DNA of 32,000 nt from Erysipelotrichaceae bacterium. Lineage in GTDB: Bacteria; Bacillota_I; Bacilli_A; Erysipelotrichales; Erysipelotrichaceae. A program made the position numbers and the translations under genes. A model generated the notes under the pieces. That model searched no databases. It was not told the origin of the DNA and was given only the letters and a program-made list of their open reading frames with translations. Of this stretch, positions 22,301 through 30,954 are shown in pieces (within the stretch, counting starts at the first letter, position 1; the number at the start of each line of letters is the position of its first letter). The stretch spans positions 90,001 to 122,000 of the forward strand of contig OY760660.1 of assembly GCA_963663995.1 (NCBI GenBank), written 5' to 3'.

Positions 22301-22942
22301 TTAACTATCAAAATAAAACTCATTATTCATATTTTCAGCATCTTTAAGTCTGACATCTATGAGATTTCTAAGATGTTCAACATGCTCAATTAATTCTTTC
22401 ATCAGTGTTTTATCCAATTGATTTTCTTCAACCATCAAGCACATTTTTGAAATGACCTCTTCATTGTCTAGGGAGATACGATAAGGTCTATGTTCTGATA
22501 GAGCGCTAAAGACATCTGAGATTTGAATTATACGAGATTGATTACTGATTTGATCAGCATTTAAATGATCTAGATAGCCACTACCATCTAGTCGTTCATG
22601 ATGTTCACCTAACCAATTAGCGATTTCTTCAAATCCATCCACTTTTTCAATGACCATTTTAGAATAATAAGAATGTTTCTTGATTAAGTCATATTCTTCT
22701 TCACTGAGTGGTCCTTCTTTATCAATGATTTCATTTGGGACAACTAGTTTTCCTAAATCATGGAGTAAGCCAGCTAAATAAAAATAGGCAGTGTCTTCTT
22801 CAGAATACCCTAAACATTTTGCGAGATACTCAGCAACATTTGCGACATTTTCTGAGTGTCGAGCTGTAAAGGTAGACTTTGCATCAACTAATTTGGAATA
22901 GGTTGACGCAATCGAAATTAAATCAGCTAAATTATAAGACAT
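22301..22942 (-). CDS. HD-GYP-type phosphohydrolase domain ORF (distal part of a split gene)
   Basis: RHSENVANVAEYLAK...GLLHDLGKLVVPNEIIDKEGPLSEEEYDLIKKHSYY...HHERLDGSGYLDHL gives the HD plus HHExxDGxGY motifs of HD-GYP (GYL in place of GYP). Confidence 0.7.
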   Translation of the reverse strand: MSYNLADLISIASTYSKLVDAKSTFTARHSENVANVAEYLAKCLGYSEEDTAYFYLAGLLHDLGKLVVPNEIIDKEGPLSEEEYDLIKKHSYYSKMVIEKVDGFEEIANWLGEHHERLDGSGYLDHLNADQISNQSRIIQISDVFSALSEHRPYRISLDNEEVISKMCLMVEENQLDKTLMKELIEHVEHLRNLIDVRLKDAENMNNEFYFDS

Positions 22943-23038
22943 TTGATTGTTAGCGCTTAAATCGATTAAGAATTGATCATTATCTGATATATGGCTTAAA
23001 CATTCCCAAAATGTCTTGTTTTTTGCGATGTTTTTAAA

Positions 23039-23527
23039 TTACTGAACTAATTGTGGATCAAAGTGATCACTACTGTCTAGTGACTTCTGAATTTCGTTTA
23101 CTTGATTTTCGATAGGTAATTCTTGATTTATCATCAAATCTATACGATCAGCAAGATAAATGATTCGACTTTCTAGTGGAATATTTTCACCCACTAAACC
23201 ATTTTGGTTTAATCCGCTAAATCGATTACGATGTGATCTTACAATTTCTGCTAGTTGACTAAAGAAAGTAGATTCTTTTAGAATTTTATAACCTTCTTGA
23301 GCATGTTCAAAAATGAAATCATCATTATCATCGATGATGATTTGTTGTTTTTCATTCCAATGAATGGCTGCACCTATATCATGAATTAAAACCGCAAATA
23401 CTAAATTAGTAATTTGCTTATTTGATAACTTCAATTCTACAGCAATCACTTGAGAAATATATGCAACACCTAAGTGATGTTTTAAAATCCCAGGATTAGA
23501 AAGTTCCAGGGTTGCAGATAAGCTCAT
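23039..23527 (-). CDS. HD-domain ORF (proximal part of a split gene)
   Basis: LKHHLGVAYISQVIAVELKL...VLIHDIGA...SHRNRFSG...IIYLADRID is an HD-type metal-dependent phosphohydrolase-like domain. No SD is visible. Confidence 0.7.
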   Translation of the reverse strand: MSLSATLELSNPGILKHHLGVAYISQVIAVELKLSNKQITNLVFAVLIHDIGAAIHWNEKQQIIIDDNDDFIFEHAQEGYKILKESTFFSQLAEIVRSHRNRFSGLNQNGLVGENIPLESRIIYLADRIDLMINQELPIENQVNEIQKSLDSSDHFDPQLVQ

Positions 23528-23621
23528 AATTAAATTGACTGGATTAAAATGATTAGTCGGTTTGATATAAATTCCTTATACCTATATTAGGTATATATAG
23601 TTAATATTCTATCAAAATATT

Positions 23622-24101
23622 CTATAAACCTAGTCTTTCTATCCATATATAATGTTGTGGATATAGCTTTCTTAATTGATCTTTCTTATAAAGTTCGAAT
23701 TCATTATAAAGAAATCCAGGGCTAACAATGCATGCGACTAAACTATTTCCTTTATTAGGCACAAAAGATCCAAAGATGGCTCCTGCTTTAACCACAGCCT
23801 GTTGGACACAATTTTCTGCAAAGCCCAAATGTATTATCTCAAGTTTTCCATCTGTGTGAATACAAACTACATCCAAAGGATCTCCTTTTTGATGAATCCA
23901 TATTTCATCAGATTGTAACTTAAGGAAATGAGATACTTCATTGCCATATAAGAAGAAAAGGATAGAGGTATAAAGGGGTCTTGTTTCTCTACCAACTAAA
24001 TCGATCATTTCCTCTGCTTTTAAAGTCTCTTTAAAATACCCACCTTCAGGGTGGATTTCTAATTGATACTTTTCAATATATTGCAGTGTTTCTTTTTTCA
24101 T
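23622..24101 (-). CDS. Cupin superfamily protein (DUF985-like)
   Basis: YIEKYQLEIHPEGGYFKET...YTSILFFL fits the DUF985/cupin_5 N-terminal pattern. 159 aa. Confidence 0.75.
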   Translation of the reverse strand: MKKETLQYIEKYQLEIHPEGGYFKETLKAEEMIDLVGRETRPLYTSILFFLYGNEVSHFLKLQSDEIWIHQKGDPLDVVCIHTDGKLEIIHLGFAENCVQQAVVKAGAIFGSFVPNKGNSLVACIVSPGFLYNEFELYKKDQLRKLYPQHYIWIERLGL

Positions 24102-25151: not shown

Positions 25152-25236
25152 GCCCGAGTGGTGAAATCGGTAGACGCAGTGGACTCAAAATCCACCGCCG
25201 CAAGGCATGACGGTTCGAGTCCGTCCTCGGGCACCA
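25152..25236 (+). tRNA. tRNA-Leu (anticodon CAA), class II, CCA encoded
   Basis: GCCCGAGTGGTGAAATCGGTAGACGCAGTGGACTCAAAATCCACCGCCGCAAGGCATGACGGTTCGAGTCCGTCCTCGGGCACCA. Acceptor GCCCGAG/CTCGGGC. Anticodon stem GTGGA/TCCAC with loop CTCAAAA. T-loop GGTTCGAGTCC. Confidence 0.9.
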
Positions 25237-25242
25237 GTGATT

Positions 25243-25270
25243 TTCAGTAAGATTCAGTAACTTTCAGTTA
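25243..25270 (+). repeat. Three tandem 10-bp units (TTCAGTAAga, TTCAGTAAct, TTCAGTTAat) immediately 3' of tRNA-Leu
   Basis: Exact 10-bp phasing at 25243, 25253 and 25263. The last unit overlaps the start of the 42-bp direct repeat. Confidence 0.75.
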
Positions 25271-25306
25271 ATTATCGACTGTAAACAACGAGAGATCGTT
25301 GTTTTT
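25265..25306 (+). repeat. Direct repeat, left copy (contains the tRNA-Leu terminator hairpin AACAACGA/TCGTTGTT plus T-run)
   Basis: CAGTTAATTATCGACTGTAAACAACGAGAGATCGTTGTTTTT matches 28742..28783 at 36 of 42 positions by hand alignment without gaps. Confidence 0.8.
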
Positions 25307-25522
25307 TAATCTACTACTTTTATGATATTTGATAAATAAAGATTAAATATAGAAAATAAAATATTCATGAATTCTTATAGTGAATTATGGATTATTGAAA
25401 ATGGATTAGATCTTAGACTTAAATCAATTTTTATGGATGAAACTGAATAAAAATTATCACACTTATCGTGGGTAGACGTTTATTTTTGATAGTGATATCA
25501 TGTAGAAAAGGTGGGACTTTTT

Positions 25523-25909
25523 ATGAAAAAAAATAATTATTTAGTTTTATTGTTTACATTCATCATATGTTTTTTTGGATTGGATTTGTTAAATACAAAA
25601 GCAGATACAGGAACTGTAGGTTACACATATCATTATATGGTAAAAGGGATGGTAGATCTAGGTTCTAATGTTAGACATACGACTACCGCAACTTTATATA
25701 ATCCAAGTGGATATATAACTTGTTCAAATACTTACCTTCAATATTCTGAAGTTCCGTATCCAGTCTGTTCTTCTCCTTCAGCTTATACATATGTTGTTCA
25801 AGTTGAAGCAGATATGTCTTGGCAAGCTCATTATCACGTTTCGTCAGCTTATCCATATGCAAGATTTCAATCGCTTTCAATTGATGAATTAATATCTTTG
25901 AATAAATAA
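25523..25909 (+). CDS. Small secreted Tyr/Thr/Ser-rich protein (128 aa; candidate bacteriocin-like effector)
   Basis: SD AAAGGTGGG lies 7 nt before ATG 25523 (the track start at 25511 is a GTG inside the SD). Sec-type signal MKKNNYLVLLFTFIICFFGLDLLNTKA|DTG. Mature protein ~101 aa with 2 Cys and three [PS]S[GA]Y repeats. It is the first gene of a tight three-gene operon. Confidence 0.75.
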   Translation: MKKNNYLVLLFTFIICFFGLDLLNTKADTGTVGYTYHYMVKGMVDLGSNVRHTTTATLYNPSGYITCSNTYLQYSEVPYPVCSSPSAYTYVVQVEADMSWQAHYHVSSAYPYARFQSLSIDELISLNK

Positions 25910-25915
25910 TTATTG

Positions 25916-27964
25916 ATGAAAAAGCTGACAGTTTTATTTGTTTTCATTTTATCTATATTATTGTCTTATTTTACTGCAATTGCTGTTAATGATTATAATC
26001 TAACACAAATAAGCGATGTAAAAGATGACAGTATTTTTAAGTGCAATTTAATTATTAAGGACTATGATAGTGTTGATCGAAACCAACTGATTAATCACAT
26101 CATGGAAGTTGCGATAAGTAATGATTTACTGATTTCAACTGGTTGGGTAGATGATGAATCTAATACTTTCTATTATTATGGAACTCAAGAATATGTTGAA
26201 TTTCTTTTGCTTAATAAAGTACCACGAACTAATAATAATTTAATCAAACTTGATGATAGGGAATTATCATTGAATAGTTTTAGTGATGGTGAATATGGAA
26301 AAATCTATTCAGTTGGAGGATTTCCTACTCATATTCAAAATTTCGAATTTTATTCGTTTGATCAAGTTAAATCTTCTGATATTTCGTTAGATTCAAGAAT
26401 TGAAGTAAGATCCCTTTATGGAAGTAGTAATGTCGATAGTGCAATTCATGAATTATCAAGCTATTATCCTGAATTAGAGATTACATATGAGATAAGAGAG
26501 GGAACAACTGGTGAATTAGATTTTACTTGGCAAAAGAGTATAAGTAACTATGTTGTTTTGTCATTAGTTTTTGTATTTCTACTGATTATGATTTCGATGC
26601 TAGTCATTATCAAAAAACAAGAAAGATTGATTGCAATTAGTAAACTCTTAGGTCATTCGTCGTTTCAAATATCATTAAGATTATTTAGTTTATTTTCTGT
26701 CACACTGGTTTTTACATTTGTTTTTGGTTTGTTGTTTTTTGATTATTTTGTTATTGGTAAATTTGATTTTTATAATTTACTTTACTATCAAATGCAACTG
26801 TTTATAATGTTTAGTTTTGTTATAATGGTGCTTTTAATATTTACTTTATCAATATTTTTTATACAACGTTTAAAAGTTGTTGAGTCTATTAAAACCAGAA
26901 CTGTCGATCAAAAATTATTATATGGTGGACTCATTCTAAAATTCTTATTAGTGGCAGTATTATTGTCATCTTATATTGATATATACCATGAATTTATTTC
27001 TTCCACTGAATCATTTCTTTTTTATCAAATTAATAAAGATGAATTATCTAAAATTTCTTATATTTCTGGATCCATGGAAGAGTTGATTATTTCAGACTGG
27101 AAACAAATATCGACAAACATCGCTGATAAATTCATCGAAGAAAATATTGAGTTATATTGTATTCATTATCCTGAAACTTATGTTGATAATAGAAATCATA
27201 TGGTCAATATTATTTCTGTTAATAAAGCTTATGTTGATAGATATTTACCAAGTATTTCAAATAATCTAAGTGCTTACAATTTAAATAATCATGGAGTCAT
27301 TTTTATTCCTAAGCTGTTAGAAAATGAAATAAGCCAATATGAAAGATTTGTTCCACCACCGTATCTAACAGATGAGATTGTTATATTAGATAAAATTCCA
27401 GATTTATTTTTCTATTTTTCAGTTGAAAATAACAATGATAATACATTGTTATTTGTAACAGAAGTTGCAAATGAGTATACTGGCCCTAAAATTACTTACC
27501 CATGTTTTATTCTTGAAGAATATAAAGGTAGTACATCGATAATAGACTCTGTAATCAATTCAAACTCTATAAATACAATGTTAGTGACAAAGTCCAATGA
27601 GCCAAGTGTCTTTCGAGAAATCACATATAACACATCAGTACTTTTAGAGAATGGTGTACAAGCAATATTATCCTTTGGAATTATTGTTAGCTTTTTCATT
27701 TTGATGCTGATTATATACCTTTACACAAATTTAAAGCTTATCGTGATTAAAAAGAATTTAGGCTATAGTGACTTCCAAACATTTTCATCTTTTTTACATT
27801 TAAATTCAATTATCTATGTAAGTGGTTTGATCTACTTCTGGTATAAAGGGAATTTAGATTGGATTAGTTTTAGCCTACTTGTGATTCTTGTGTTAATGGA
27901 AATATGTGCCATAAAATTCTACTTGTTTATAAACAAAAAGAATTTTAAAAAATGGTTAAGTTAG
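25916..27964 (+). CDS. 683-aa polytopic membrane protein with two FtsX-like modules and two large extracytoplasmic domains (bacteriocin-associated/DUF1430-type putative immunity-export permease)
   Basis: N-terminal TM, ~185-aa loop, 4-TM block, ~230-aa loop, then a C-terminal 3-TM block. After the first TM of each block comes an FtsX-like amphipathic motif (KKQERLIAISKLLGHSSFQISL and TNLKLIVIKKNLGYSDFQTFS). It starts 6 nt after the upstream stop; a TTG at 25913 is an alternative start. Confidence 0.7.
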   Translation: MKKLTVLFVFILSILLSYFTAIAVNDYNLTQISDVKDDSIFKCNLIIKDYDSVDRNQLINHIMEVAISNDLLISTGWVDDESNTFYYYGTQEYVEFLLLNKVPRTNNNLIKLDDRELSLNSFSDGEYGKIYSVGGFPTHIQNFEFYSFDQVKSSDISLDSRIEVRSLYGSSNVDSAIHELSSYYPELEITYEIREGTTGELDFTWQKSISNYVVLSLVFVFLLIMISMLVIIKKQERLIAISKLLGHSSFQISLRLFSLFSVTLVFTFVFGLLFFDYFVIGKFDFYNLLYYQMQLFIMFSFVIMVLLIFTLSIFFIQRLKVVESIKTRTVDQKLLYGGLILKFLLVAVLLSSYIDIYHEFISSTESFLFYQINKDELSKISYISGSMEELIISDWKQISTNIADKFIEENIELYCIHYPETYVDNRNHMVNIISVNKAYVDRYLPSISNNLSAYNLNNHGVIFIPKLLENEISQYERFVPPPYLTDEIVILDKIPDLFFYFSVENNNDNTLLFVTEVANEYTGPKITYPCFILEEYKGSTSIIDSVINSNSINTMLVTKSNEPSVFREITYNTSVLLENGVQAILSFGIIVSFFILMLIIYLYTNLKLIVIKKNLGYSDFQTFSSFLHLNSIIYVSGLIYFWYKGNLDWISFSLLVILVLMEICAIKFYLFINKKNFKKWLS

Positions 27965-27973
27965 GAGACAGTT

Positions 27974-28624
27974 ATGAATGAAATATTGATTGAGTGTACG
28001 AATATAAATAAAAAGTTTAAAGATCAAACCGTTTTTAAGGATTTTAACTTGTCAATTTCTAAAGGTAAATGCCTAGTTATAAAAGGTGAATCCGGAAGTG
28101 GTAAAAGTACCTTGTTAAATATGATTGGGCTATTAGATTTACCCGATAGTGGTCAAATTAAAATATTTGGTCAAGTTAATATTAAACCGTATTCGAAAAT
28201 AGCAGAAAGATTACTAAGAAATAAAATCGCATATTTGTTTCAAAATTTTGCTTTAGTTGATCATATGACTGTTAATGAAAATTTAGATTTAGCACTTAAA
28301 AATGTTAAATCTAAAAATAAAAAACAACTTATAAATGAAACACTCAGTAAAGTTGGCTTAAAAGGTTATGAAGAAAAATATATTTATCAATGTTCTGGCG
28401 GTGAGCAACAACGTATTGCTTTCGCTAGATTGTTAATTAAACCATGCGAGTTAATCTTGTGTGATGAGCCAACAGGTAATTTAGATGATATGAATAAAGA
28501 AGTGATATTAGACTTGCTTTCAGATTTAAAAAATATGGGTAAAACAATTATCATTGTGACACATGACAGTGAAGTTTTAAAACTTGCTGATGAAGTTTGT
28601 AAAATAAATAAAAGTACTTGTTAG
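27974..28624 (+). CDS. ABC transporter ATP-binding protein (MacB/LolD-like ATPase)
   Basis: Walker A GESGSGKST, Q-loop LFQNF, signature CSGGEQQR, Walker B LILCDEPTGNLD, H-loop IIVTHD. SD TAGGAGA. It starts 9 nt after the permease stop. Confidence 0.9.
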   Translation: MNEILIECTNINKKFKDQTVFKDFNLSISKGKCLVIKGESGSGKSTLLNMIGLLDLPDSGQIKIFGQVNIKPYSKIAERLLRNKIAYLFQNFALVDHMTVNENLDLALKNVKSKNKKQLINETLSKVGLKGYEEKYIYQCSGGEQQRIAFARLLIKPCELILCDEPTGNLDDMNKEVILDLLSDLKNMGKTIIIVTHDSEVLKLADEVCKINKSTC

Positions 28625-28741
28625 TGAAATGAACCCCGAAAAGTAGATATTAATTAAAAATAGTATTTAGTGTATTGGCCCAAAATTGTCCTGAAATTCA
28701 AATATAGTTACGGATACTTTTAGTTAGTTACATAATAGAAG

Positions 28742-28783
28742 CAGTTAGATATCGACTAAAGACAACGAGAAATCGTTGTTTTT
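28742..28783 (+). repeat. Direct repeat, right copy (second copy of the terminator-containing 42-mer)
   Basis: CAGTTAGATATCGACTAAAGACAACGAGAAATCGTTGTTTTT. It is preceded (28706..28747) by four (C/T)AGTTA units that echo the TTCAGTWA units at the left junction. Confidence 0.8.
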
Positions 28784-28799
28784 ATATAGAATCTTATTT

Positions 28800-29480
28800 A
28801 AAACCACATGCTATGCGTGTGTGAAAAGAGACTTCTAGAGTGGTAACAGAAAAAAAAGCCCACTTTGGACAAATTAGAAAGGCTGACAACCAAACTAATG
28901 ACCAAAGGAGGGCAACTTGAGCTCAAGCGAAAACAGTTTATCACATACAAGATGGAATTGTAAGGTTCACGTCGTATTCATCCCAAAGTACAGACGGAAG
29001 ATAATTTATGGGAAGTTAAGAGAAGATATAGGACGAATATTGAGACGACTTTGTGAAATGAAAGACGTTGAAATATTAGAGGCACATGCATGTGCCGACC
29101 ATATCCATATGCTTTTGAAGATTCCACCGAAGTTGAGTGTTTCTGGATTTATAGGCTACACGAAAGGTAAAAGTACCTTGATGATCTGTGATCGACATGC
29201 GAGTTTGAAATACAAACAAGGAAACCGAAACTTCAGGGCGAAGGGATACTATGTAAGCACAGTAGGACTGAATGAAAAAACGGTTCAAGATTACATTCGA
29301 AACCAGGAAACAGAAGACAAATTAAGAGACAACATGACAAAGAGAGAATACATAGATCCCTTTAAGGGATAGTAAGTAAGAGAAAACGGTTGTCAGTCTT
29401 TATTACCTCTTTAGAGGTACTGTAAGCAAGATGCCCTTATAGGGCGAAACTAAAACTACCCGTTCTACGGGTAGATAGTT
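28800..29480 (+). mobile_element. IS200/IS605-family element (IS200-type, tnpA only); boundaries approximate
   Basis: Carries a Y1 HUH transposase gene. Subterminal hairpin on the left: CACATGC-TAT-GCGTGTG (28805..28821). Hairpins on the right: ACCTCT-TT-AGAGGT (29405..29418), GCCCT-TAT-AGGGC (29433..29445) and CTACCCG-TTCTA-CGGGTAG (29456..29474). About 680 bp, typical of IS200. Confidence 0.7.
28917..29372 (+). CDS. tnpA: IS200/IS605 family transposase TnpA (Y1 HUH)
   Basis: SLSHTRWNCKVHVVFIPKYRRKIIYG..., HUH motif ADHIHMLLKIPP, and the catalytic Tyr region RAKGYYVSTVG. TTG start 5 nt after AAGGAGG. Confidence 0.9.
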   Translation: MSSSENSLSHTRWNCKVHVVFIPKYRRKIIYGKLREDIGRILRRLCEMKDVEILEAHACADHIHMLLKIPPKLSVSGFIGYTKGKSTLMICDRHASLKYKQGNRNFRAKGYYVSTVGLNEKTVQDYIRNQETEDKLRDNMTKREYIDPFKG

Positions 29481-29519
29481 ATTTAATATTCACAATATAA
29501 AAGAGTGTTATTCAGTTAA

Positions 29520-30067
29520 ATGGAGAAAATAAGATAAAAACTGTATCAATGTTAAAGCAAGAATTAAAGATATTCAGATATAACATCTAGAATATCGATA
29601 TTAGTAGGCAAGGGGGAATTAACACCAATTATTTGTGGTTACTATGAAACAGATAAAACAACACCAGGACATTATTTAGCCTCTCTTATATACGGACCTT
29701 CCTATTTATCATTTGAATTTCATTATCGCATCATGGATTGATTCCTGAAGCAGTTTATCAATTTACTTCAGCAACTTATAACAAGCGTAGAAGAAAAAAG
29801 TATGAGACACCATTTGGTGTATATACCTATTGTGATGTTCCCTAAAATGCATTTTATTTAGCAACTTTTCTTTATCATGAGAATGGATACAGTTGTATCG
29901 TGACAAGTCAGGAAAAAGCTTTTTGCGACATACAATATACTTATGAGCCATGTGCGAATCAAAAGGAGTTATTATTAGTAATTAAGGAACAGAAAAATGC
30001 GATAAAAGAAGTTATTCAAGAAATTGAGGTTTTATTTCAATGTTTGCTAGGAGTTAACTCTAAATGA
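29520..30067 (+). pseudogene. Decayed AbiEi-like (type IV TA / abortive-infection antitoxin, wHTH) gene remnant
   Basis: Readable segments across frames are MEKIR*, KTVSMLKQELKIFRYNI*, VGKGELTPIICGYYETDKTTPGHYLASLIYGPSYLSFEFHYRIMD*, IPEAVYQFTSATYNKRRRKKYETPFGVYTYCDVP* and NAFYLATFLYHENGYSCIVTSQEKAFCD...KELLLVIKEQ. The pattern G-EL..I..G.Y...(5-10)...PSY.S.E.AL...G.IPE.V...TS resembles AbiEi-family antitoxins from memory. There is at least one frameshift (~29740) and an in-frame TAA (29843..29845). No cognate toxin gene follows. Confidence 0.4.
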
Positions 30068-30093
30068 TATAGTTTTAAAAATGGAGAATTTCA

Positions 30094-30897
30094 ATGAAAT
30101 ATACTGATTCAAAACAAGCTCAAGTTTCTGACACGATTAAAATCTCAGAAGAGTCATTTTATAAAACCAATGGAACATCAATTTACTGGCTAGGCGGTGC
30201 TGGTGAATTCATCAACTCACGTGGAACTACGATTATGTTAGATCCCGTTCTTAGAGACTTTGATATGCCACTTCTTTATGAAATGCCTATATTAACAGAA
30301 GAGGTACCGGTATTAGACGCTATTTTGATTACCCATGATGATAATGATCATTATAGTGTACCCACTTGTTTAGATTTGAAGGACAAATGCAAAGCATACC
30401 ATGCACCTAACTATGTGGCTGATTTAATGAAACAACATGGCTTAGATTCAATTAAACATACCATTAATGACGTTTTTAAAGTAAATGATATTTCTATCAA
30501 ATTAACCACTGCTGATCATGCTTGGAAAAATGATTATCCAAAATATGGAAGACAATATGCCTTTGAAGATTATTGTGGATATTGGATTGATACTCCTGAT
30601 GGAAGCATATGGGCAATTGGGGATTCAAGATTATTAGAAGAACAATTGCATATGCCTGAACCTGATGTTATTTTCTTTGATTTTTCAGATAGTAGTTGGC
30701 ACATTGGTTTTGATAACGCGATCAAATTAGCGAACACCTATTCGAATTCCGCATTACTGTTATGTCATTGGGGTTGTGTTGATGCGCCTACAATGACACC
30801 ATTCAATGCTGATCCACAAGATTTATTAGATAAAGTTGTTAACCCAAATAGAATTCACATTCTTGCACCAGGTGAAGAATTTATTCTAAAAAAATGA
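30094..30897 (+). CDS. MBL-fold metallo-hydrolase
   Basis: The metal-binding motif ILITHDDNDHYS, later TTADHAW, and LLCHWG near the C-terminus. SD TGGAGA. Confidence 0.75.
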   Translation: MKYTDSKQAQVSDTIKISEESFYKTNGTSIYWLGGAGEFINSRGTTIMLDPVLRDFDMPLLYEMPILTEEVPVLDAILITHDDNDHYSVPTCLDLKDKCKAYHAPNYVADLMKQHGLDSIKHTINDVFKVNDISIKLTTADHAWKNDYPKYGRQYAFEDYCGYWIDTPDGSIWAIGDSRLLEEQLHMPEPDVIFFDFSDSSWHIGFDNAIKLANTYSNSALLLCHWGCVDAPTMTPFNADPQDLLDKVVNPNRIHILAPGEEFILKK

Positions 30898-30954
30898 AAC
30901 GACTTTATAAAATGCTAAATAGTCTAATCGAGTTTCCCAAGGTATAATAATTCT

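Follow-up and report, generated by a model that had tools for sequence, protein, structure and literature searches.

A candidate bacteriocin-like cassette with lactococcin-972-type partners in an uncultured Erysipelotrichaceae bacterium

A contig of an uncultured Erysipelotrichaceae bacterium (GenBank assembly GCA_963663995.1, contig OY760660.1) was analysed over the 32,000 nucleotides from position 90,001 to position 122,000 of the forward strand; this whole stretch is referred to as the window, and positions are counted from its first letter. At 25523-28624, the window carries three co-directional genes, here called g1, g2 and g3, which encode a small protein with a signal peptide, a large integral membrane protein and an ATP-binding cassette (ABC) ATPase. 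Judging from sequence comparisons, this cassette probably combines a new effector family, represented by g1, with a known platform of the lactococcin 972 (Lcn972) type. The analysis demonstrated that g3 and, weakly, g2 are homologous to the partners of Lcn972-type bacteriocins, and it showed coupling of g1 to these partners in all intact loci of the four g1 lineages, purifying selection and signatures of mobility. The genes of the cassette are:

25523-25909, forward strand: g1, 128-amino-acid (aa) precursor of a secreted protein, starting with MKKNNY
25523-25603, forward strand: signal peptide of g1; the mature part of 101 aa is encoded by 25604-25906
25916-27964, forward strand: g2, 682-aa integral membrane protein with two FtsX-like modules
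27974-28624, forward strand: g3, 216-aa ABC ATPase of the lactococcin-972-type subfamily

The intergenic gaps measure 6 and 9 nt, and the coordinates of the open reading frames (ORFs) agree with the tight same-strand packing described in a first-pass annotation of this DNA. For g1, an alternative GTG start at 25511 is unlikely because the homologs of g1 all start with MKK and a Shine-Dalgarno sequence, AAAGGTGGG, lies at 25507-25515. Translation of g2 could start at ATG 25916 (682 aa) or TTG 25913 (683 aa), of which ATG 25916 appears to be the best choice since the identical database protein P0012 has 682 aa and the orthologs all start with MKK. The first-pass annotation had correctly described a membrane protein, but its length of 683 aa was off by one, as its own 6-nt gap implies a start at 25916. 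g3 is preceded by a GGAG Shine-Dalgarno sequence. The GC content of the cassette is 27.5% compared to 33.4% in the rest of the window, in agreement with the earlier impression that the cassette is more AT-rich than its neighbours.

Homology of the membrane protein and the ATPase to lactococcin-972-type partners

Canonical operons of the Lcn972 type combine a Sec-dependent bacteriocin with a membrane protein, presumed to confer immunity, and an ABC protein (PMC4055356, PMC11796350, PMC12345188). As comparators, we used lcn972-orf2-orf3 (pBL1), scbABC (streptococcin B) and the mediterrocin cluster with mdcF, mdcH and mdcI. A true Lcn972 locus, L018, which encodes a 91-aa PF09683 bacteriocin, a 638-aa DUF1430 protein and a 210-aa ABC ATPase, served as positive control; its proteins scored 73, 476 and 254.5 bits on TIGR01653, TIGR01654 and TIGR03608, respectively.

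The assignment of g3 as a complete ABC ATPase was confirmed by a match to PF00005 (E = 8e-32). With 258.0 bits, g3 passes the cut-off of TIGR03608 (L_ocin_972_ABC; 254.85 bits), the next family being FtsE with 176 bits, and it shares 43% identity with the ATPase of the control locus (E = 1e-53). Since this canonical ATPase reaches 254.5 bits on the same model, g3 is, by its score, as good a member of the TIGR03608 family as the canonical one. TIGR03608 was also the best match for the ATPases from distant g1 loci (240-241 bits), followed by FtsE with about 168 bits.

In the case of g2, we found seven strong hydrophobic segments and a weaker eighth one at about residues 622-642, two large hydrophilic loops predicted to be external (28-205 and 359-574), and two FtsX-like motifs following transmembrane (TM) segments, LIAISKLLGHSSFQ and LIVIKKNLGYSDFQ, which align with each other at E = 0.0013. 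The hydrophobic segments and the self-alignment of the motifs bear out the annotated architecture of 7-8 TM segments, two large loops and two FtsX-like modules. The protein matches TIGR01654 with E = 4.6e-18 and 65.1 bits, below the curated cut-off of 189.35 bits, and the C-terminus of PF07242 (DUF1430) with E = 5.7e-4 and 20.5 bits at a cut-off of 28.2 bits; its orthologs in other lineages score 0-38 bits on TIGR01654. Alignment of g2 with a canonical DUF1430 protein by hhalign gave E = 1.5e-4 over 372 collinear columns. Because 65.1 bits compare to a cut-off of 189.35 bits and to 476 bits for the canonical L018 protein, g2 is best described as a very divergent TIGR01654/DUF1430 homolog that lies outside the curated family. 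The layout of this family is matched by g2 with regard to its size of 682 aa, its seven strong and one weak TM segments and its position between the genes for a small secreted protein and an ATPase.

These comparisons indicate that the operon is homologous to the Lcn972 type, firmly via g3 and remotely via g2, and they uphold the first-pass proposal of an Lcn972-like gene layout, with g3 passing TIGR03608 and g2 both matching TIGR01654 and being collinear with a DUF1430 protein. The same annotation had considered that the pair might instead group with systems of the BceAB/MacB type. This is not what we found because no two-component system adjoins the cassette in any locus: genes for a histidine kinase or a response regulator were detected neither in the window flanks nor in any related locus (more than 10 loci). 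In addition, g2 had no hit to a Bce family in NCBIfam.

The secreted protein and its relation to lactococcin 972

The N-terminus of g1, as read from the sequence, consists of an n-region with KK, a hydrophobic core and a predicted cleavage site after TKA and before DTG, and all 10 family members have the ADTG junction unchanged. This n-h-c layout with its invariant junction agrees with the Sec signal ending before DTG that had been annotated, and g1 thus resembles the Lcn972 family in being a small product with a Sec signal peptide. In the mature part, the two annotated cysteines are present (C67 and C82 in precursor numbering), but they are missing from three of the four lineages and do not hold as a family feature. 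Rather, the family is characterised by the motifs ADTG, K/R-H-T-T and Q-x-H-Y-H and by four invariant histidines. The last approximately 15 aa of g1 form a tail specific to the lineage of the window. A segment of this tail, FQSLSIDELISLNK (25868-25906, residues 116-128), is predicted with low confidence and might be a propeptide, a helix or a partner-binding tag. The sequence of g1 has no lipobox, LPXTG motif or C-terminal TM anchor. A lipoprotein or a sortase-anchored protein was considered as an identity for g1 and ruled out on the grounds that the lipobox at the cleavage site, the LPXTG motif and the C-terminal TM segment are all missing. The module encodes no C39-peptidase ABC exporter and no modification enzyme.

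In order to find relatives of g1, we searched several collections. No match was obtained in Pfam, NCBIfam or PADLOC models, and profile searches of PDB sequences gave nothing below E = 1. PADLOC assigned no defence-system identity to g1 or g2 and only generic ATPase hits to g3. An indexed search of 5.8 billion clusters revealed five close relatives with 73-90% identity, and exhaustively searching 1.84 billion representatives with a HMMER profile yielded four clusters (at 50% identity) of real relatives, P0006-P0009, with E values from 2.6e-39 to 3e-11; the two other hits of this search were a fragment and a repeat protein. Altogether, the family is very rare, as 15 billion proteins contain about a dozen members, and none of the GTDB species-representative genomes encodes a relative. 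The claim that the small protein is undescribed thus stood, as no family was hit although the positive controls worked and only the four clusters of relatives were found. In the published literature that we searched, neither the g1 family nor a non-Lcn972 effector on an Lcn972-type platform is described.

The similarity of g1 to Lcn972 was assessed at the level of profiles, sequence and predicted structure. The Lcn972 query sequence matches PDB entry 2LGN exactly. TIGR01653 and PF09683 did not match g1 at E <= 1, and none of the 10 family members matched PF09683 at E <= 10; as positive controls for TIGR01653 (cut-off 32 bits), Lcn972 scored 107 bits and P0027 73 bits. The hhalign probability for the g1 family was 6.7% against Lcn972 and 1.1% against an alignment of eight Lcn972 members; the Lcn972 profile used here is narrow, comprising close relatives only, and the broad curated hidden Markov models (HMMs) are the main membership test. 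The first-pass annotation had noted at most patchy similarity to Lcn972. A single patch of 12 residues indeed exists (SWQAHYHVSSAY in g1 versus TWQHGYGVSSAY in Lcn972), with p of about 0.012 against shuffles for the window protein alone, but the other members lack it, and a comparison with column-shuffled profiles showed it to be non-significant (11/150). Because the patch is C-terminal in g1 but N-terminal in Lcn972, a circular permutation of the Lcn972 fold was considered as well; it was rejected, as tandem duplication gave no gain at the level of sequence or profile and the patch was not significant. The greater length of g1 (by about 35 aa), previously taken as a sign of novelty, is not unusual and does not set g1 apart, because mediterrocin, a validated family member that is 18% identical to Lcn972 and encoded together with a seven-TM protein of the DUF1430 type and an ABC protein, has a mature form of 89 residues (PMC12345188).

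For the mature g1 protein, AlphaFold (AF2) predicted seven beta strands over residues 1-84, followed by a low-confidence tail, with a pLDDT of 87.5 and a pTM of 0.74. This model was based on an alignment of mature sequences including distant members (10 sequences); the full-length protein with close homologs alone gave an unusable pLDDT of 44.7. A Foldseek search of 350,542 PDB chains with the model gave nothing at E <= 0.001, and the top matches were generic immunoglobulin (Ig)-like sandwiches, namely domain 1 of EMMPRIN (E = 0.019, TM-score 0.44-0.49), CsgC and DUF1425. No significant match was found in a viral fold library. The model suggests that g1 shares the broad fold class of Lcn972, an all-beta sandwich. 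In the fold comparison with Lcn972 proposed in the first-pass annotation, 2LGN and 9HKJ were both outside the 50 best PDB matches; a specific structural relationship to Lcn972 is conceivable.

In view of these data, we consider it rather unlikely that g1 is an extremely diverged member of the Lcn972 superfamily, with the same beta-sandwich and lipid II-directed action, instead of a new effector family. Such an origin would fit the position of g1 in a homologous operon, its all-beta prediction, given that Lcn972 is described as a beta-sandwich (PMC11796350), and the fact that validated members can reach 89 residues and share as little as 18% identity with Lcn972 (PMC12345188). The patch in the window protein points in the same direction, and g2 has diverged almost as far, as expected if the whole operon had co-diverged. 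Yet TIGR01653, which scores true members at 73-107 bits, and PF09683 miss the g1 family (E <= 1-10), the hhalign probabilities remain at 1-7%, and the patch is confined to one member, lies at the opposite terminus and gains nothing from circular permutation. Moreover, the 50 best fold matches in the PDB include neither 2LGN nor 9HKJ. By sequence criteria, g1 appears to represent a new and very rare family that fails every sequence test for Lcn972 membership.

A tentative further step, which we regard as possible but not the expected outcome, is that the g1 family has an independent evolutionary origin as a secreted beta-sandwich toxin and was recruited to an Lcn972-type transporter. If true, pairs resembling TIGR01654/TIGR03608 would be a general immunity platform with a swappable effector, and scanning for pairs of this kind without an identifiable Lcn972 gene would reveal more families of Sec-dependent bacteriocins. 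A target-binding site unlike that of Lcn972 might be indicated by the four histidines conserved in all members and by the invariant D-T-G at the start of the mature protein. According to the description of TIGR01654, some of its members adjoin uncharacterised proteins that are possibly also bacteriocins, and the general idea of non-Lcn972 neighbours is not new because this description mentions such proteins.

Linkage, selection and mobility

The survey of related genomes that the first-pass annotation had suggested revealed the triad in all four g1 lineages: with the exception of L008, it was found in full in every locus with a long enough contig. All three genes are present in the window, L002, L003, L007, L015, L020, L021 and L022; in L014, L016, L011, L001 and L004-6, the triad is truncated solely by contig ends. 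In the lineage of the window (L002, L003, L007, L020, L021 and L022), the products have 128-130, 682 and 215-224 aa. The P0009 lineage (L015 and L016) encodes products of 110, 694 and 214 aa, and the P0007 lineage (L014) products of 112 and 672 aa, with the ATPase gene interrupted by the contig end. In the P0008 lineage (L011), the gene downstream of g1 encodes a protein that is 32% identical to g2 (E = 6e-39). The identities among linked g1 proteins reach down to 38%, and a g2/g3 pair without g1 was not seen among the loci examined. In the exceptional L008 (5990-8945; compare L011:1-1316), a P0008-like g1 gene is frameshifted by an 11-nt deletion in the signal-peptide codons, and the g1 terminator hairpin is directly followed by genes for an unrelated FtsX-like permease of 558 aa and an ABC ATPase resembling LolD. 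Decay of a toxin gene, recombination or a chimeric assembly may account for this locus.

All three genes of the cassette are under purifying selection. Compared to several loci, the ratios of nonsynonymous to synonymous substitution rates (dN/dS) were 0.10-0.13 for g1, 0.18-0.20 for g2 and 0.11-0.14 for g3.

The first-pass annotation had placed the cassette in a repeat-bounded patch beside a tRNA and an insertion sequence (IS) element, and the corresponding features were identified as follows:

25152-25236, forward strand: tRNA-Leu(CAA), found with ARAGORN and Rfam; its 3' end is the left edge of a variable slot
25265-25306, forward strand: left direct repeat of 42 nt with the terminator-like hairpin AAACAACGAGAGATCGTTGTTT, from repeat search, terminator scan and alignment
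25460-25501, forward strand: conserved upstream control region with the 18-nt box CACTTATCGTGGGTAGAC (25460-25477), which overlaps the -35 element TAGACG
28742-28783, forward strand: right direct repeat, sharing 86% identity with the left one and likewise containing a terminator-like hairpin
28917-29372, forward strand: IS200-type Y1 transposase gene (PF01797, E = 4.5e-33)

The extent of the conserved unit was determined by nucleotide comparison of the window with five independent loci, in which similarity starts at 25455-25460 and stops at 28606-28612. The shared mobile unit thus appears to be a 3.2-kb module of promoter plus three genes, which is kept end to end in eight loci; the IS200-type transposase gene lies outside this conserved module (25455-28612) and is a neighbour in the variable slot only. 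A promoter scan gave a hit at 25473-25501, with a -35 element TAGACG, a spacer of 17 nt and an extended -10 element TGaTATCAT. The box CACTTATCGTRGGTAGAC at 25460-25477 is near-invariant in seven loci with flanks that are about 70% identical or unrelated. Because this conservation exceeds what the -35 hexamer needs, the box may be an operator, i.e. a candidate regulator-binding site. No regulator gene travels with the module.

The site of insertion was analysed with the nearest species-representative genome, an Erysipelotrichaceae metagenome-assembled genome (MAG; OY781039.1, locus L017), in which a flanking gene is 80% identical at the protein level. Between L017 and the window, synteny extends from 14902 up to the very 3' end of tRNA-Leu (25236) and resumes at 30939. 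In the window, the slot in between (25237-30938) is occupied by the cassette, the IS200 transposase gene, an unassigned stretch of about 0.7 kb and an MBL-fold gene; in L017 (10810-19239), it holds a tyrosine integrase island with DUF4238, DUF2513 and large unannotated genes. No recombinase (integrase or excisionase) besides the IS200 Y1 transposase was found at 25237-30938. From the left repeat, weaker similarity runs back to the CCA end of the tRNA, and an Rfam scan detected nothing besides two tRNAs. In L001, the cassette is located at a non-tRNA site downstream of uvrB, and a tRNA-Leu 3' remnant of about 24 nt ending in CCA (L001:7790-7900) and the same hairpin repeat are found upstream of it, which suggests that an att-like sequence moved together with the cassette. 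Elsewhere, Fic, AbiTii, RhuM and SLFN/AlbA genes are neighbours of the cassette. With a tRNA 3' site, direct repeats, atypical composition and a different slot content in L017, the cassette has the features of a tRNA-associated island and appears to be a horizontally moved cargo module of accessory islands, located here in a tRNA-Leu integration hotspot.

Two further observations concern the surroundings of the cassette. At 22301-24101 of the window, two separate HD/HD_5 ORFs of 212 and 161 aa precede a Cupin_5 gene, whereas L017:7399-9238 has a single 446-aa double-HD_5 protein with the Cupin gene on the other side; the comparison indicates a local rearrangement and possibly a split gene. The stretch of about 0.7 kb between the IS200 transposase gene and the MBL-fold gene (29373-30093) has short ORFs only, on both strands.

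Proposed function and comparison with known systems

From these results, we lean towards the view that the cassette encodes a Sec-secreted bacteriocin-like protein together with a dedicated ABC machine for self-protection; secretion, killing and its target, and the role in immunity are inferences here. The g1 protein would leave the producer via Sec as a free, soluble all-beta protein (about 10-11 kDa), which would most likely act as a bacteriocin-like antagonist of related Gram-positive cells, with lipid II as a conceivable target by analogy. g2 would be a single-chain permease with two FtsX/MacB-like modules and would form the ABC machine with a dimer of g3. This machine would protect the producer in that ATP-driven movements of the large external loops remove g1 from its envelope target or exclude it from there.

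Several points weigh against this view. Sequence and profile searches detected no similarity of g1 to Lcn972 or any known toxin. The AF2 model was built on just 10 sequences, and the Ig-like sandwich fold is also used by adhesins and binding proteins. With 65 versus 189 bits, g2 is far under the curated TIGR01654 cut-off. Furthermore, g1 is the most conserved of the three proteins (dN of 0.13-0.17 versus 0.29 for g2), unlike the diversifying pattern often seen in toxins.

Alternatively, g1 might not be a toxin but a secreted accessory, such as a loop-binding partner, a signal or a surface/matrix protein, of a resistance or export pump of the FtsX/MacB/BceAB kind. The Ig-like prediction resembles binding modules, the strong purifying selection on g1 and its conservation beyond that of g2 are compatible with such a role, and the operator-like box suggests regulated expression. 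In addition, canonical loci themselves are said to offer no direct experimental evidence for the functions of the B and C proteins, which are unproven there as well (PMC11796350). However, g3 groups with the Lcn972-type subfamily and not with LolD, MacB or FtsE, no two-component system or other sensor is linked in more than 10 loci, g1 has no anchor motif, and the cassette is patchy, mobile, AT-rich and located in accessory islands, as is typical of competition cassettes. An accessory role of g1 is therefore improbable in our judgement. That the cassette is a decaying, non-functional island remnant, as the missing integrase in the window slot, the adjoining IS200 element and the frameshifted g1 of L008 with its unrelated permease/ATPase pair could suggest, is hardly credible given that the window copy has all three ORFs intact, with promoter and Shine-Dalgarno sequences, the dN/dS values of 0.10-0.20 versus several loci and the end-to-end conservation of the module in eight loci.

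If the bacteriocin-like protein encoded by g1 is active, it would represent a new family of unmodified, Sec-exported protein antibiotics from poorly studied uncultured Firmicutes. The Lcn972-type membrane/ATPase pair could then serve effectors that are invisible to current bacteriocin-mining models, and genome mining would gain a practical 'guilt by association' route. The advance is incremental, as the operon logic is already known, the g1 family is very rare and the find has no bearing on a long-standing open question.

Of the known systems, we compared the cassette first to the Lcn972 operon. Both have, in the same order, a small Sec-dependent protein, a multi-TM protein of about 640-690 aa and an ABC ATPase of about 210 aa. 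The ATPases belong to TIGR03608 and are 43% identical, the membrane proteins are homologous, the small protein is predicted to be all-beta and the genomic context is mobile or accessory. Differences from the Lcn972 operon are that TIGR01653, PF09683 and hhalign fail to recognise g1, which carries invariant motifs and four invariant histidines of its own and does not have 2LGN or 9HKJ among its 50 best PDB fold matches; g2 scores 65 bits on TIGR01654 compared to 476 bits for the canonical protein, and the host is an uncultured member of the Erysipelotrichaceae and not a lactic acid bacterium or a member of the Lachnospiraceae.

The type VII ABC systems, such as BceAB, MacB and FtsEX, act by mechanotransmission and not by transmembrane transport. 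The cassette shares with them the FtsX-like TM modules and large extracytoplasmic loops of g2 and a separate ATPase of the MacB/LolD/FtsE-like group and, by analogy, mechanotransmission is the likely mode of action of g2 and g3 as well. Differences are that g2 has 8 TM segments in two modules, compared to 4 in MacB and FtsX and 10 in BceB, that no linked BceRS-like two-component system was found at the cassette loci, and that g3 has TIGR03608 as best family, about 80 bits over FtsE, with the pair being coupled to its own small secreted protein.

Like islands that target tRNA genes, the cassette lies directly 3' of tRNA-Leu, with flanking repeats that begin near the tRNA 3' end and a lower GC content, and a tyrosine-integrase island in the same slot of L017 and a tRNA remnant in L001 complete the resemblance. 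Unlike such islands, the window slot has no integrase or excisionase, and the conserved unit comprises just the 3.2-kb promoter-plus-operon.

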